From the IMG/VR virus record IMGVR_UViG_2563366842_000005: 29,444 nt of DNA; one strand, given 5' to 3'. The notes below the pieces were generated by a model that was not told the origin of the DNA, made no database searches, and was given only the letters and a program-made list of their open reading frames with translations. The position numbers and the translations under genes were made by a program. The stretch's first letter is position 1, and each line of letters opens with the position of its first letter. The DNA is from a virus (lineage: Duplodnaviria; Heunggongvirae; Uroviricota; Caudoviricetes). Positions 2,597 through 18,085 of the stretch are shown piece by piece.

Positions 2597-2757
2597 ACAG
2601 CCCCTCGTTTATTATTTATCTCCTCAGCCAGCCGCTGGGCTTTCAGTGGATTTTGGATAACAGAAAGGCCGGGAAATACCCAGCCTCGCTTTGTAACGGA
2701 GTAGACGAAAGTGATCGCGCCTACCCGGATATTATCGTGAGGATGCGTCATCGCCAT
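2569..2757 (-). CDS. Small lambda early-left protein (orf60a-like)
   Basis: 62-aa ORF whose ATG at 2757 lies 7 nt downstream of the exo stop; overlaps the previous ORF by 28 nt, so one of the two starts may be wrong. Confidence 0.5.
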
Positions 2758-3428
2758 TGCTCCCCAAATACAAAACCAATTTCAGCCAGTGCCTCGTCCA
2801 TTTTTTCGATGAACTCCGGCACCATCTCGTCAAAACTCGCCATGTACTTTTCATCCCGCTCAACCACGACATAATGCAGTCCTTCACGCTTCATACGCGG
2901 GTCATAGTTGGCAAAGTACCAGGCATCTTTTCGTGTCACCCACATGCTGTACTGCACCTGGGCCATGTAAGCCGACTTTATGGCCTCGAAACCACCGAGC
3001 CGGAACTTCATGAAATCCCGGGAGGTAAACGGGCATTTCAGCTCAAGGCCATTGCCGTCACTGCATAAACCATCGGGAGAGCAGGCGGTGCGCATACTTT
3101 CGTCGCGATAGATGATCGGGGATTCAGTAACATTCACGCCGGAAGTGAATTCAAACAGAGTTCTGGCGTCGTTCTCGTACTGTTTTCCCCAGGCCAGCGC
3201 CTTAGCATTAACTTCCGGAGCCACACCGGTGCAAACCTCAGCCAGCAGGGTGTGGAAGTAGGACATTTTCATGTCAGGCCACTTCTTTCCTGAGCGGGGC
3301 TTTGCTATCACGTTGTGAACTTGTGAAGCGGTGATGACGCCGAGCCGTAATTTGTGCCACGCATCATCTCCCTGCTCGATAGCTCTCACGTCGATCCCGG
3401 TACGCTGCAGGATAATGTCCGGTGTCAT
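2748..3428 (-). CDS. exo: Lambda exonuclease (Red alpha)
   Basis: 226-aa translation ([40 protein letters not shown]...) is near-identical to lambda Exo as I recall it; overlaps bet by 4 nt as in lambda. Confidence 0.95.
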
Positions 3429-6913: not shown

Positions 6914-7813
6914 TTATTTGATTATTTCTTTTATAAAGACTTCTTTCGGTTGGTATTTTTTATCTGATGATTTGAGCTGGTACGTTATTGTTATATCAGC
7001 ACGTACAGAAAATTTACCTGCAAAATCTGATGGGTTTACGTTGGGGCCAAGAACCATATTTACTCTTCGATCTATTAATCCAGGGATAACAGCAGCCCAA
7101 CCTTTCTCTGGATTGTCGAGGTCTAATGCACGGATTTCAACATCAACATCAAAATGATCCTGAGTATATGACTCTGGTGTGAAGACAACTTCAGTTGGGG
7201 CTTTTTTAATGGTTTCAGCGGGAATGGTCACTGTACCACCCCCTGTACCTATGACCATCGTAGATCCTTCGTCTGCCCTAGCTGGGGCAAGCGTCTTAAT
7301 GGAACTTTTGGCAAGAGTCTTCTTATTGGTTACCGTGCTTTCTATGATTGCTTGAAGACGGTCAGGTGAAATATTAGCCTCACCGGCACCAATATTGATG
7401 ATTGTATTGTTATTTGCTTCAAAGTGGGAGGTGTTGCTTGGAGCCATAGCCTTAGTTGCTAGAACTAAGCCATATCCAACCAGACCAATAACAACAGCAC
7501 CAACGAGAGCGTTTCTCATTTTCCCATTTCCGATCTTTGCATGAGCGCCAGCAAGAAACTTGTCCATTTCTTCTTGGCTACCAAAGAGGAGTTTAATAAC
7601 AATATCTTCATAAAGGCTTCCTGCTTCTAATCGCGCAACATGCACCGATATATCAAGGATATTAGCCCCTGTCAGTTCCTGCAAAACACCTTCTGATTGT
7701 TTTGCGATGGCCTCCCACCCTTGAAGGGAGGTAATCACATCTTTGATGCTTACAGGTTCTTTAGTTGAATAATATATGTTTTCGGTAAAGGTTAAAGATA
7801 ATTCTTGGGACAT
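6914..7813 (-). CDS. Uncharacterised 299-aa single-pass membrane protein in the rexAB slot (candidate superinfection-exclusion or abortive-infection protein)
   Basis: ATG at 7811-7813 with GAGGG SD. About 100-aa N-terminal soluble region, one hydrophobic helix (ALVGAVVIGLVGYGLVLAT, residues about 102-120, lysine/arginine on the N side), then a 175-aa Thr/Gly/Ala-rich C-terminal domain. Visibly AT-rich versus flanking phage DNA. Co-directional with cI, between cI and pL/OL. No family or kinase motifs recognised. Confidence 0.7.
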   Translation of the reverse strand: MSQELSLTFTENIYYSTKEPVSIKDVITSLQGWEAIAKQSEGVLQELTGANILDISVHVARLEAGSLYEDIVIKLLFGSQEEMDKFLAGAHAKIGNGKMRNALVGAVVIGLVGYGLVLATKAMAPSNTSHFEANNNTIINIGAGEANISPDRLQAIIESTVTNKKTLAKSSIKTLAPARADEGSTMVIGTGGGTVTIPAETIKKAPTEVVFTPESYTQDHFDVDVEIRALDLDNPEKGWAAVIPGLIDRRVNMVLGPNVNPSDFAGKFSVRADITITYQLKSSDKKYQPKEVFIKEIIK

Positions 7814-7926: not shown

Positions 7927-9121
<1,195 letters not shown>

Positions 9122-12478: not shown

Positions 12479-12551
12479 CCATCTACATTACTGAGCTAAT
12501 AACAGGCCTGCTGGTAATCGCAGGCCTTTTTATTTGGGGGAGAGGGAAGTC

Positions 12552-12992
12552 ATGAAAAAACTAACCTTTGAAATTCGATCTCCAGCACATCAGCAAAACG
12601 CTATTCACGCAGTACAGCAAATCCTTCCAGACCCAACCAAACCAATCGTAGTAACCATTCAGGAACGCAACCGCAGCTTAGACCAAAACAGGAAGCTATG
12701 GGCCTGCTTAGGTGACGTCTCTCGTCAGGTTGAATGGCATGGTCGCTGGCTGGATGCAGAAAGCTGGAAGTGTGTGTTTACCGCAGCATTAAAGCAGCAG
12801 GATGTTGTTCCTAACCTTGCCGGGAATGGCTTTGTGGTAATAGGCCAGTCAACCAGCAGGATGCGTGTAGGCGAATTTGCGGAGCTATTAGAGCTTATAC
12901 AGGCATTCGGTACAGAGCGTGGCGTTAAGTGGTCAGACGAAGCGAGACTGGCTCTGGAGTGGAAAGCGAGATGGGGAGATCGGGCTGCATGA
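12552..12992 (+). CDS. ninB: NinB (Orf recombination mediator family)
   Basis: 146 aa from ATG 12552 (MKKLTFEIRSPAHQQNAIHAVQQILPDPTKP...), matches lambda NinB; the track ORF starts at an upstream TTG. Confidence 0.85.
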   Translation: MKKLTFEIRSPAHQQNAIHAVQQILPDPTKPIVVTIQERNRSLDQNRKLWACLGDVSRQVEWHGRWLDAESWKCVFTAALKQQDVVPNLAGNGFVVIGQSTSRMRVGEFAELLELIQAFGTERGVKWSDEARLALEWKARWGDRAA

Positions 12993-13516
12993 CTATCAAA
13001 TCAAATACGCCAGCACACGACAAGGACTGCTGGCAAACGCCGCTTTGGCTTTTTGATGCACTGGATATTGAGTTTGGATTCTGGCTGGATTCGGCAGCGA
13101 GCGACAAAAATGCTCTGTGTGCTCACTGGCTAACTGAGGCCGACGACGCGCTCAATTCTGAGTGGGTAAGCCACGGTGCAATCTGGAATAACCCACCGTA
13201 CAGCAATATCAGGCCGTGGGTGGAAAAAGCCGCTGAGCAGTGCATACAACAGCGACAGACGGTAGTTATGCTTGTGCCAGAGGATATGTCAGTCGGATGG
13301 TTCAGCAAGGCTCTGGAGAGTGTCGACGAAGTTCGCATTATCACTGATGGACGGATTAATTTTATCGAACCATCGACAGGGCTGGAGAAGAAGGGAAACA
13401 GCAAAGGCTCCATGCTGCTGATTTGGCGACCGTTCATCAGTCCTCGACGGATGTTTACTACCGTATCCAAAGCGGCATTGATGGCGATCGGGCAGGGCGT
13501 CAGGAGGGCGGCATGA
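12989..13516 (+). CDS. Phage DNA N6-adenine methyltransferase (Dam-like)
   Basis: ATG at 12989 overlaps the ninB stop (ATGA). Contains the catalytic N6-MTase motif NPPY (IWNNPPYSN). An alternative upstream ATG at 12971 is possible. Confidence 0.75.
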
Positions 13517-13689
13517 GGCGACAGCGACGAAGTTTCACCGACATCATCTGCGAAAACTGCAAATACCTTCCAACGAAACGCTCCAGAAATAAACGCAAGC
13601 CAATCCCAAAAGAATCTGACGTAAAAACCTTCAATTACACAGCTCACCTGTGGGATATCCGGTGGCTAAGATATCGTGCGAGGAAATGA
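13513..13689 (+). CDS. ninE: NinE
   Basis: 58 aa from ATG 13513 with GGAGGG SD ([58 protein letters not shown]), matches lambda/DLP12 NinE. Confidence 0.8.
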
Positions 13690-13691
13690 CA

Positions 13692-14033
13692 ATGGATTAT
13701 TCACAGTTAAGTGATTTTGAAATTAACAGAATGGTAGGAGACATAATTTTTAAAGGCCTTTGGGCAAGTAAACCGGAAACATCAGGGAATAACACCAACA
13801 AATGGTATTACGGAAATGCTGATACAACTTTTGAGCCATTAAATCATTTGCCTGACTACTGCAATGATCCGAGCGCTTCATGGCCGATTATTGAGAAATA
13901 CAGGATTTCTATCTTAGACCAGTTAACTGAATGGTGTGTGGATGCAAAAGGCGTAAGCCCAATATTTGATACCAGACCTCTCCGCGCCGCCATTATTGTC
14001 TTTCTCCTGATGCAGGAGGCCAATAATGCTTAG
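13692..14033 (+). CDS. Hypothetical nin-region protein (NinX-like by position)
   Basis: 113 aa from ATG 13692 (GAGGA SD); AT-rich; sits where P22-type nin regions carry ninX. Family assignment is not verified. Confidence 0.5.
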
Positions 14034-15358: not shown

Positions 15359-15883
15359 TTATTGTTTGACCCATAATAGTTCATTGACATTGAATCCCAA
15401 TTTTTGAGCAGTACGCACATAGTCTGCTTTTACATTATCTGGAATAGTTGGAGTCCGTGCCAGAATCCATAGGTATTCTCTGTTCGGACCACTGACAAGA
15501 GCATACTTATACTCATCATCCAGTTTGATTACATTATAGCCACCATAGAAGGGGCCAAAAAACGAAACCTTCAACGCTGCAGTTGTATTATCTCCTGTAA
15601 AGTATGCTTTACCTTCGCTCTCGCTCCATTTGTTTTTCGTTGGGTCATATCCACGATTAAGTACACTAATCCCTCCGTCGTTCCGTTTCCCATAAGTGGC
15701 GCTGACCTGTTCCAGACCACGTTCAAATCGGTTCTCAAGCCGAGCTATTTCATACCATTTTCCGAGGTAGCGGTTGGTGTCAAAATTTGTAATCGGCTGC
15801 ACACCTTTAGGTGGTGTCGGGGCCTTACATGCTATCAGAGTGAAAGAGAGTGCAATGCCAGTCAACACAGGCCATAACTTCAT
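15359..15883 (-). CDS. blc: Blc-like bacterial lipocalin, outer-membrane lipoprotein
   Basis: 174 aa with lipoprotein signal and lipobox (MKLWPVLTGIALSFTLIAC) and the lipocalin motif NFDTNRYLGKWYEIARLENRFERG; roughly two-thirds identical to E. coli Blc by eye. Opposite strand to the late operon. Confidence 0.85.
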   Translation of the reverse strand: MKLWPVLTGIALSFTLIACKAPTPPKGVQPITNFDTNRYLGKWYEIARLENRFERGLEQVSATYGKRNDGGISVLNRGYDPTKNKWSESEGKAYFTGDNTTAALKVSFFGPFYGGYNVIKLDDEYKYALVSGPNREYLWILARTPTIPDNVKADYVRTAQKLGFNVNELLWVKQ

Positions 15884-16075
15884 AATATATCCTGTACTTT
15901 TGATAGTTGAGAGTAAGTATTAAAGATAGATGATTACTACCGATCACCTAAAGAACTTTCCTACTATATTAGGAATAGTCCATAACAAAAAAATTGTCAG
16001 TGATGACGGCAGAAAGGCAGTTTAGGTCGTGTACTACACTGTTAACCTGTTAATGAATTAGTCAAGGGGTAGGCA

Positions 16076-17035
16076 ATGATAAAAAAACCTGTCGTTGGGA
16101 TCAGTGGTTGTTTGGCCGGTTCTTCTGTCCGTTTTGATGGTGGTCACAAAAGAGCTAGCTTTTTAATGGACAAATTACTGGAATGGGTAACATTCAAACC
16201 AGTATGTCCGGAAATGGCTATAGGGCTTCCAGTTCCGCGTCCTGCTCTACGTCTTGTTCGCTCGGCGCAAGGAAATATACGGATGTGTTTCAGCCACGAC
16301 CAGAATGAGGATGTTACAGAGAAAATGACAGAGTTTAGTCGTTCTTATCTTGACAAATTAAAGGATGTATCGGGATTTGTGGTTTGTGCAAAATCTCCTA
16401 GCTGTGGTATGGAACGCGTGCGTGTATATGATGAAAATGGTAATCGTGGTCGTAAAGATGGAGTGGGACTATTTACGAGCACGTTGATGGAAAGGTTTTC
16501 CTGGCTACCGGTTGAAGAGGATGGGCGACTACATGATCCAGTGCTTCGTGAAAACTTTGTTGAAAGAGTATTTGCTTTACATGAGCTCAATCATCTTTAT
16601 AAAGCGAAATTATCAAGAAGGGAATTATTAGCTTTTCATAGCCGTTATAAGCTTCAGTTGTTGGCGCATAGCCAGGCCGGTTATAAAGAGATGGGGCCAT
16701 TTGTGGCTGCAATACATGAGTGGGCAGACCTTGAATCATACTTTGAGGTGTATCGTGAGAAGCTGATGGCGATTCTCAGAAAACCTGCATCACGTAAAAA
16801 TCACACGAATGTGCTGATGCATATACAGGGATATTTTAGTAACTGCTTAAATACACGTCAGCGTAAAGAGTTGAGCGATGTTATACTTAACTATCGAGCT
16901 GGCACGCTACCTCTTCTTGCGCCATTAACTTTGCTGAAGCATTACTTGGCAGAGTATCCTGATGATTATTTGCTTATACAGAATTACTTCCACCCCTATC
17001 CTGATGAACTGGCTCTAAGACTCTTGGTGAACTAG
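16076..17035 (+). CDS. Two-domain protein: Cys-containing DUF523 (TudS/YbbK-like) N-terminal domain fused to a DUF1722 (YbgA-like) C-terminal domain
   Basis: 319 aa, ATG 16076 with AAGGGG SD. N-terminal region carries conserved-looking cysteines (GISGCLAG, VCPEMAIG, CAKSPSCGMERV) as in DUF523 Fe-S proteins; C-terminal half is helical and basic. Domain assignment is from memory and needs an HMM search. Confidence 0.55.
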   Translation: MIKKPVVGISGCLAGSSVRFDGGHKRASFLMDKLLEWVTFKPVCPEMAIGLPVPRPALRLVRSAQGNIRMCFSHDQNEDVTEKMTEFSRSYLDKLKDVSGFVVCAKSPSCGMERVRVYDENGNRGRKDGVGLFTSTLMERFSWLPVEEDGRLHDPVLRENFVERVFALHELNHLYKAKLSRRELLAFHSRYKLQLLAHSQAGYKEMGPFVAAIHEWADLESYFEVYREKLMAILRKPASRKNHTNVLMHIQGYFSNCLNTRQRKELSDVILNYRAGTLPLLAPLTLLKHYLAEYPDDYLLIQNYFHPYPDELALRLLVN

Positions 17036-17353
17036 GCGTTTGGAATGCACCAACAAGATGATTTTCTCCTTAGAGAATGTTTACAATCGTAAAAACTTCA
17101 CTATGATATCTATAGTTGTACAGTTTGTAAAAAAATTCGGTTCATGCTTAAGGTAATGTTAATATGTTAATTAATGATTAATAATCAAGCAAGCCAAAAA
17201 TAGTTCTGTTTAATCTAGTATTACATAAATATTTTAAAGAAAATATCAAAGTTCATGATGATATAATGAGATTTTTCTCATTGAAAATATGGCAATTTTA
17301 ATATTTCCACCTATACTTACTTAACTCAAATCTAATTATGTCAGGTGGATGGT

Positions 17354-18085
17354 ATGCCATGCATATGTTCTATCATTTTGGTTTTGAACTCGTTTGATAT
17401 CCGGCTTGGTAAAGAAAAAATCTCTCTAAAAAAAGGAAGTGTTGTTGCTATAGAATACAATTTAAAAGTTTTCTTTTCTTCAAATAAAGATAATATAATG
17501 ATCGTGGATATTGAAGAGAAAACAGTTAATGACTTCTTTAAAAACAATACACTCTCACCTTTTTCTGTAAGAAGATTTTATTCAGCATACTTGATAGTAA
17601 ACTGTACAGACTATTCATTGTTAAAGAACTTGATAGGTTGCTTGAATTGTGATGGTGAAACTACGGCTGTAGTTAAAAATTCAATATTATTTGCATGTCT
17701 TGCTATTTTATCCTCGGAAAAAATGTTTCAGAGTTTTTTGTTTGGGTGTCTTAATAGTTTAGGAAGCAAAGTTAAGGCTATTATTCACTCGGACATATCT
17801 GCAGCATGGAGACTTTGTGATATTTCTTCAAGACTATGTCTGAGTGAAAGTTTGTTAAAAAGAAAACTAAAACACGAAGGCTTATCATTTAGCAAATTAA
17901 TTCTTGAAGAACGAATGGTGATGGCTGAAAGGTTATTAAGCTACAATTTCTATCCTGTTGGGAAAGTTGCTAAAATATGTGGTTATGAAAGCGCGTCATA
18001 TTTTATAAGTGTTTTCAGAAGATATTTTGGTGTTCCCCCCCATGAATATTCATCAAGATTTTTTTTAGAAAAAGGCAAGATGTAA
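17354..18085 (+). CDS. AraC-family transcriptional regulator (AppY/EnvY/Rns-like)
   Basis: C-terminal AraC-type HTH region (KVAKICGYESASYFISVFRRYFGVPPHEY). Very AT-rich gene with an AT-rich upstream region. Start ambiguous: ATG 17354 after an AGGTGGA SD, or GTG 17345. Confidence 0.75.
   Translation: MPCICSIILVLNSFDIRLGKEKISLKKGSVVAIEYNLKVFFSSNKDNIMIVDIEEKTVNDFFKNNTLSPFSVRRFYSAYLIVNCTDYSLLKNLIGCLNCDGETTAVVKNSILFACLAILSSEKMFQSFLFGCLNSLGSKVKAIIHSDISAAWRLCDISSRLCLSESLLKRKLKHEGLSFSKLILEERMVMAERLLSYNFYPVGKVAKICGYESASYFISVFRRYFGVPPHEYSSRFFLEKGKM

Follow-up and report, generated by a model that had tools for sequence, protein, structure and literature searches.

A 29,444-nucleotide stretch of Caudoviricetes DNA (IMG/VR record IMGVR_UViG_2563366842_000005; the whole stretch is called the window here) carries a small methyltransferase gene between ninB and ninE, and this locus raises the question of what the enzyme is, which site it modifies and in which phase of phage growth it acts. 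A sequence-only reading had described the gene as an orphan, Dam-like adenine methyltransferase embedded in the nin region. The best explanation, which we consider highly probable, is that it is the nin-region dam gene of lambdoid and Stx (Shiga toxin) phages, taken to be M.EcoVT2Dam: a mosaic methyltransferase with GATC as its reported target, expressed in lytic growth, whose role is probably to top up methylation. The gene and its two principal motifs are as follows.

12989-13516, plus strand: dam, encoding an orphan phage N6-adenine DNA methyltransferase of 175 amino acids (PF05869, TIGR01712, phrog_111), product identical to that of VT2-Sakai dam.
13085-13099, plus strand: motif-I-like segment L33-D34-S-A-A37, with L33, D34 and A37 invariant in 11 sequences, on AlphaFold2 strand 31-36.
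13190-13201, plus strand: catalytic motif IV, NPPY, residues 68-71 (AACCCACCGTAC), where predicted strand 64-68 ends.

Direct translation of the dam frame gave 175 codons and a stop. The product matched Pfam PF05869, "DNA N-6-adenine-methyltransferase (Dam)", at 218.4 bits (cut-off 28.1, E = 6.4e-65) over profile positions 1-167 of 169, and the equivalog-level NCBIfam model TIGR01712, "phage N-6-adenine-methyltransferase", at 265.9 bits (cut-off 97.05, E = 9.7e-80) over positions 1-165 of 165. It also matched phrog_111, "DNA methyltransferase", at 8.6e-88, and its best matches in PADLOC were "orphan methyltransferase" models. In the Pfam scan, PF05869 was the sole family at E <= 0.01, and neither PF02086 (MethyltransfD12) nor MT-A70 was among the matches. 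Thus, the expected assignment to a Dam family by profile was obtained with both models well over their curated cut-offs, and the description of the gene as an orphan phage adenine methyltransferase of the nin region is backed by PF05869, TIGR01712 and the PADLOC orphan models.

The sequence-only reading had allowed for the enzyme having lost its catalytic residues. These are intact, because they are invariant in an alignment with the Dam proteins of phages T1 and HP1 (11 sequences: the window protein, T1 Dam, HP1 Dam and eight enterobacterial homologues), in which NPPY and the L-D-x-x-A motif are kept as far as these two distant members. The residues invariant with T1 and HP1 Dam were T17-P18, L33-D34, A37, N68-P-P-Y-S72, D99, S101, W104 and F105, and NPPY was invariant in an alignment of 60 sequences as well. 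The L33-D34-S-A-A37 segment would correspond to the S-adenosylmethionine-binding loop that follows strand beta-1.

A tblastn search of a phage collection showed that the dam product is 100% identical over all 175 amino acids to that of VT2-Sakai dam (AP000422, BAA94133.1), which has the same 4-nt overlaps with a NinB homologue and NinE. Positions 1-20513 of the VT2-Sakai record hold no other gene named dam and no other annotated methylase, and we therefore take the gene of the window to be M.EcoVT2Dam of REBASE. The identical protein is also present in Phi24B, Stx2-converting phage II and Min27, and a 99% identical one in HK97. More than 12 lambda-like phage records contain the stretch 12534-13700 with 100% identity (422 phage records matched in all), and the phages Lambda_ev110, 2E9 and 1H12 are ~100% identical over window positions 1-20505. 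Of 5426 complete E. coli genomes, 1566 (about 29%) carry the dam gene; among the matches listed, each genomic copy bears the name "phage N-6-adenine-methyltransferase" and lies between NinB and NinE. The gene is a known, characterised and routinely annotated one and not a new discovery: it has been named dam in the VT2-Sakai record since deposition and is covered by curated Pfam and NCBIfam models.

A target has been reported for the enzyme that we take to be this one. PMC6602927 gives 5'-GATC-3' as the known target of M.EcoVT2Dam, PMC7139368 describes GATC activity of the Dam type as shown for VT-2, and PMC7556043 counts VT-2 among the phages with Dam-like genes; all three cite Radlinska & Bujnicki 2001. 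By sequence identity, the dam product of the window would methylate the A of GATC, as reported. T1 Dam and HP1 Dam are other members of PF05869/TIGR01712 that are considered GATC-specific. T1 Dam (M.EcoT1Dam, ST20) is 33% and HP1 Dam (orf13) 38% identical to the window protein, and the three share T-P, L-D-x-x-A, NPPYS and D-x-S-x-x-W-F; all are phage-borne orphans. T1 Dam is longer, however, with 237 amino acids, an N-terminal extension of ~45 residues and a 14-residue insert, and the contexts differ, T1 being a virulent and HP1 a P2-like phage. The window itself contains 86 GATC sites, fewer than base composition (about 115) or a Markov model (about 142) would predict; since this under-representation is only mild, no conclusion on selection is drawn from it.

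Whether the enzyme is "Dam-like" beyond its target was addressed with an AlphaFold2 model built from 60 homologues (predicted local distance difference test, pLDDT, 90.3; predicted template modelling score, pTM, 0.87), which showed one alpha/beta Rossmann-type domain. In structural comparison, its nearest neighbours were PCIF1, M.TaqI and the type I HsdM methylases; M.TaqI scored 9.6 and M.BseCI 9.3, whereas the scores were lower for E. coli Dam (7.8), T4 Dam (7.3) and DpnM (7.0). PDB searches, by single sequence and by 60-sequence profile, returned noise only, with neither a structure of the family nor a gamma-class relative. The gamma-class enzymes M.TaqI, M.BseCI, CamA and HsdM, as well as PCIF1/CAPAM, have 320-750 residues and separate recognition domains or subunits, whereas the dam product has the catalytic core alone in 175 amino acids and shares 12-18% sequence identity with them. 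On the model, the dam product would be a bare catalytic core nearest the gamma class, without a separate target-recognition domain, and in this it belongs with small single-domain enzymes of about 170-240 amino acids.

The alpha-class enzymes E. coli Dam, T4 Dam and DpnM (PF02086) share with it the reported GATC N6-adenine target, the cofactor and the general Rossmann fold, and E. coli Dam is likewise an orphan. An alpha-class enzyme would have had Dam, T4 Dam and DpnM, with their inserted recognition domain, as its closest structures, and the dam product does not. There is no homology between it and E. coli Dam. "Dam-like" is thus true of the target only, because the three alpha-class enzymes rank lower in the fold comparison and PF05869 is the sole Pfam family: as a statement on the reported GATC target the label stands, whereas as a statement on ancestry it does not, there being no PF02086 match. 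The name "Dam" denotes a target and not descent, and structural conclusions from E. coli Dam should not be carried over to the phage protein.

The small size of the enzyme also bears on the possibility that its specificity extends beyond GATC or differs from it, being for example near-nonspecific or directed at single-stranded intermediates, so that it would serve as a general anti-restriction device and not as a Dam mimic. Such a view fits a catalytic domain in which no target-recognition domain is recognisable, and a gene located among the recombination genes ninB and rusA. There are also precedents in other orphan adenine methyltransferases of E. coli prophages and plasmids, which are nonspecific (M.EcoGI/GII) or single-strand specific (M.EcoGIX). 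In addition, the GATC claim of 2001 reportedly came from restriction-digest assays, which are blind to extra sites and compatible with a somewhat broader specificity that includes GATC. However, the enzyme taken to be the identical protein is reported to be GATC-specific, and the papers name the nonspecific enzymes separately. These latter enzymes presumably belong to families other than PF05869. Moreover, the adjacency to NinB is not kept in relatives, and T1-like phages, which carry the T1 Dam homologue, have GATC-methylated DNA (PMC11447400). A broader or different specificity is therefore very improbable. M.EcoGIX was also considered as a relative, as GAT fits its "SAY" target, and was not treated as one: it is plasmid-borne (pESBL), single-strand-specific and described in separate papers.

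Distinctly unlikely, too, is that Dam does not read GATC in the manner of classical Dam enzymes, acting instead as a dimer that uses the hairpin at residues 121-140, or with a relaxed or single-strand-preferring specificity of which restriction assays would have shown only the GATC part. If true, a relaxed or single-strand-preferring Dam would act on replication or recombination intermediates of NinB and RusA and would not be a simple mimic of host Dam.

The fold match to PCIF1 is suggestive of yet another substrate, RNA, as for the MT-A70 enzyme of a Stx prophage: this different "DNA adenine methyltransferase" prefers 16S rRNA when bound to its partner (PMC10810198). The rRNA enzyme is gp5, with DPPW and of the MT-A70 family, whereas the dam product has NPPY and belongs to PF05869 only; for the same reason, the two were rejected as being one gene (PMC10810198; M.EcoPA8orf6770P). 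Furthermore, DNA methyltransferases nearly match the PCIF1 score, as seen above for M.TaqI and M.BseCI, and it is DNA GATC methylation that is reported for the enzyme taken as the identical protein. An RNA substrate is barely credible on this evidence, and GATC in DNA remains the preferred target.

We next consider whether dam has a restriction partner, which the sequence-only reading had not seen next to it. The genes from ren to lipocalin include NinB, NinE, NinX, an open reading frame (ORF) of 64 amino acids, RusA and Q, and none of these neighbours gave a restriction or defence match in Pfam or PADLOC. The nin cluster contains no nuclease besides the Holliday-junction resolvase RusA. Likewise, no restriction enzyme is present in the annotation of phage 1H12 that matches window positions 1-20501, from int through the lysis genes. 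Adjacency of a cognate restriction gene is thus absent by all three sources, and dam is not part of a type II restriction-modification system.

Relatives with 63-68% identity were found in Yersinia, Providencia and Serratia prophages, in the early region and with varying neighbours, none of them NinB or NinE. The Providencia and Serratia relatives lie between replication genes and Q and the Yersinia relative after recombination genes; no restriction-enzyme family was among the recorded Pfam matches of their neighbours. An obligate partnership with NinB, which the ATGA coupling described below had suggested, was rejected in view of these relatives, and NinB and Dam are therefore not a conserved functional pair but neighbours at a local mosaic joint. 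In these Yersinia, Providencia and Serratia loci (L006-L014), an unannotated ORF of 72-81 amino acids (about 2756-3004) always precedes the dam homologue; in the place of NinB, it abuts the homologue or overlaps its start by 1-4 nt.

The junctions of dam in the window involve the following features.

12552-12992, plus strand: ninB/orf, a recombination mediator (PF05772 NinB, 2e-54), whose TGA stop overlaps the dam ATG.
12973-12981, plus strand: putative Shine-Dalgarno-like GGGGAG, read from the sequence, about 10 nt 5' of the dam ATG and overlapped by the GATC at 12978-12981.
13513-13689, plus strand: ninE, 58 amino acids (PF05322 NinE, 3.4e-42), whose ATG overlaps the dam TGA.

The NPPY-bearing frame was said to open in an ATGA overlap with the ninB stop and to end in an overlap with the ninE start, and the bases agree at both ends. 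At 12985-12996 (CTGCATGACTAT), the dam ATG (12989-12991) shares two bases with the ninB TGA (12990-12992), and at 13509-13520 (CGGCATGAGGCG), the ninE ATG (13513-13515) shares two bases with the dam TGA (13514-13516). The program-made ORF list starts the dam frame further 5', at GTG 12929; ATG 12989 is favoured as the start, as the N-termini of homologues and all database annotations agree on it. For ninE, AGGAGG is present at 13502-13507, 5 nt 5' of its ATG. The ATGA overlaps probably couple the translation of dam to that of its neighbours.

The protein database also contains hybrid ORFs (P0002, P0011, P0013 and P0087) in which Dam is joined to NinE, RusA, NinB or Q (Dam+NinE, RusA+Dam, Dam+NinB and Dam+Q); the Dam+NinE hybrid has 233 amino acids and 41 member sequences. 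These probably stem from frameshifts at the ATGA junctions, or else are recombinant or mis-called genes, and they illustrate the lability of such overlapping junctions.

The position of dam relative to lambda could be defined to the base. Lambda is annotated with the order NinB (40644-41084), NinC, NinD and NinE (42090-42272). In BLASTN, the window matched lambda with 98.7% identity from 10505 to exactly 12992, the ninB stop (lambda 38600-41084); homology was then absent and came back, at 95.2%, at 13520, seven bases into ninE. As lambda homology ends and resumes at these points, dam is a precise replacement of ninC and ninD with junctions at gene boundaries, and its placement in the interval that lambda gives to these two genes is confirmed by the BLASTN break. 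Against VT2-Sakai, DNA identity was 98.9% from 12982 across dam and ninE, with no DNA similarity in ninB. VT2-Sakai has O/P genes of the HK022 type, whereas the window has lambda-type ninB and replication genes (98.7% to lambda); only this surrounding mosaic differs, and the two Dam proteins are without any difference. The exchange of the dam cassette is the usual lambdoid mosaicism.

With dam set inside the nin cluster, the timing of its expression depends on one further feature.

12504-12535, plus strand: tR2-like intrinsic terminator between ren and ninB, AGGCCTGCTGGTAATCGCAGGCCT followed by TTTTATTT, from a terminator scan.

The strong hairpin of terminator type (12504-12527, with a T-run after it) is part of the block sharing 98.7% identity with lambda, and it would correspond to tR2 of that phage, placing the nin genes, dam among them, behind a barrier that depends on antitermination. 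A promoter scan of the nin cluster found promoter-like sites to be no commoner than in shuffled sequence. With a terminator upstream and no promoter better than chance, dam should therefore be transcribed from pR once N has brought about antitermination, in the delayed-early phase of lytic growth. It should be made mainly in lytic growth and be largely silent in the stable lysogen. Indeed, the dam coding sequence of Phi24B (528 bp, its protein 100% identical to that of VT2-Sakai) was among four of five tested coding sequences whose expression was "linked to the lytic cycle" (Riley et al. 2012, PMC3342100). A prophage "Dam homolog" of EC958, M.EcoMIV, is reported to be unexpressed in the lysogen; its identity with the same gene is unconfirmed, and it was not used as evidence here.

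This has a consequence for the methylome comparison of lysogen and cured strain by which the sequence-only reading would have had the target identified. About 99.9% of chromosomal GATC sites in E. coli are methylated (PMC6602927, Table 4). In a dam+ host, the comparison would probably yield no new motif even with a fully active enzyme, since host Dam already methylates this motif and lysogens would hardly express the gene; such an outcome would not speak against the annotation. Thus, lysogen methylomes can neither reveal nor refute Dam activity.

What, then, might the enzyme do? The sequence-only reading had offered self-protection or epigenetic control as possible functions, and what phage Dam enzymes do "is still not well understood" (PMC7556043). 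In the explanation we prefer, host Dam would be scarce, and fast-replicating phage DNA would outrun it in lytic growth. The phage enzyme could then complete GATC methylation, so that progeny DNA would leave the cell fully methylated. Full methylation would shield the progeny from enzymes that cut unmethylated GATC in the next host, and it would avoid nicking by MutH or binding by SeqA where GATC is hemimethylated or unmethylated. A restriction partner has no part in this.

Several points weigh against this explanation. The equation with M.EcoVT2Dam draws on the gene name and on positions 1-20513 of the VT2-Sakai record, not on 20514-65510, and the GATC claim for that enzyme comes to us through citing papers. 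A 175-amino-acid protein with no recognition domain and no PDB relative by sequence would leave the GATC reading without an explanation. The top-up and protection role is one that we infer and not one that was shown, and the authors of the Phi24B study proposed a role in the lysogen instead (PMC3342100).

On that proposal, Dam would be an epigenetic regulator in the lysogen, adding to host Dam so as to stabilise lysogeny or reprogramme host or phage expression. The Phi24B protein was caught by an antiserum against lysogen cultures, from which its authors speculated on a supplement to host Dam, and stable lysogeny of 933W needs host Dam (Murphy et al. 2008, as cited in PMC3342100). The GATC at 12978-12981, which overlaps the putative ribosome-binding site of dam itself, would also suit a regulatory circuit of this kind. 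Yet it was the same Phi24B study that linked dam to the lytic cycle, and it ascribed such signals to an induced subpopulation (PMC3342100). Moreover, dam belongs to the repressed pR operon, where it follows the tR2-like terminator and has no promoter above the chance level, and the near-complete GATC methylation of a dam+ host leaves little to change. We hold a regulatory role in the lysogen to be unlikely, and a lytic top-up of GATC methylation remains the preferred account.

Some other features of the window were recorded. An IS5-type insertion sequence of 1195 bp (7927-9121), with a transposase ORF at 7959-8975 on the plus strand (PF01609 DDE_Tnp_1 and PF05598), lies between an ORF of 299 amino acids and a cI-like repressor gene. 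It is absent from the otherwise ~100% identical 1H12, in which the two BLAST pieces that flank it overlap by 4 bp, suggesting a 4-bp target duplication. The 299-amino-acid ORF (6914-7813, minus strand), between an N-like antiterminator and the repressor, is hypothetical in 1H12 and gave no significant Pfam or PADLOC family. Its position is presumably where lambda carries rexAB, and it is possibly an exclusion or defence gene. Just downstream of Q, positions 15359-18085 hold a likely cargo (moron) cluster, which comprises a lipocalin gene, Blc (15359-15883, minus strand), a YbgA-like gene with 2-thiouracil desulfurase and DUF1722 domains (16076-17035) and an AraC-family regulator (17345-18085); the lipocalin and YbgA-like genes are annotated in 1H12 too.
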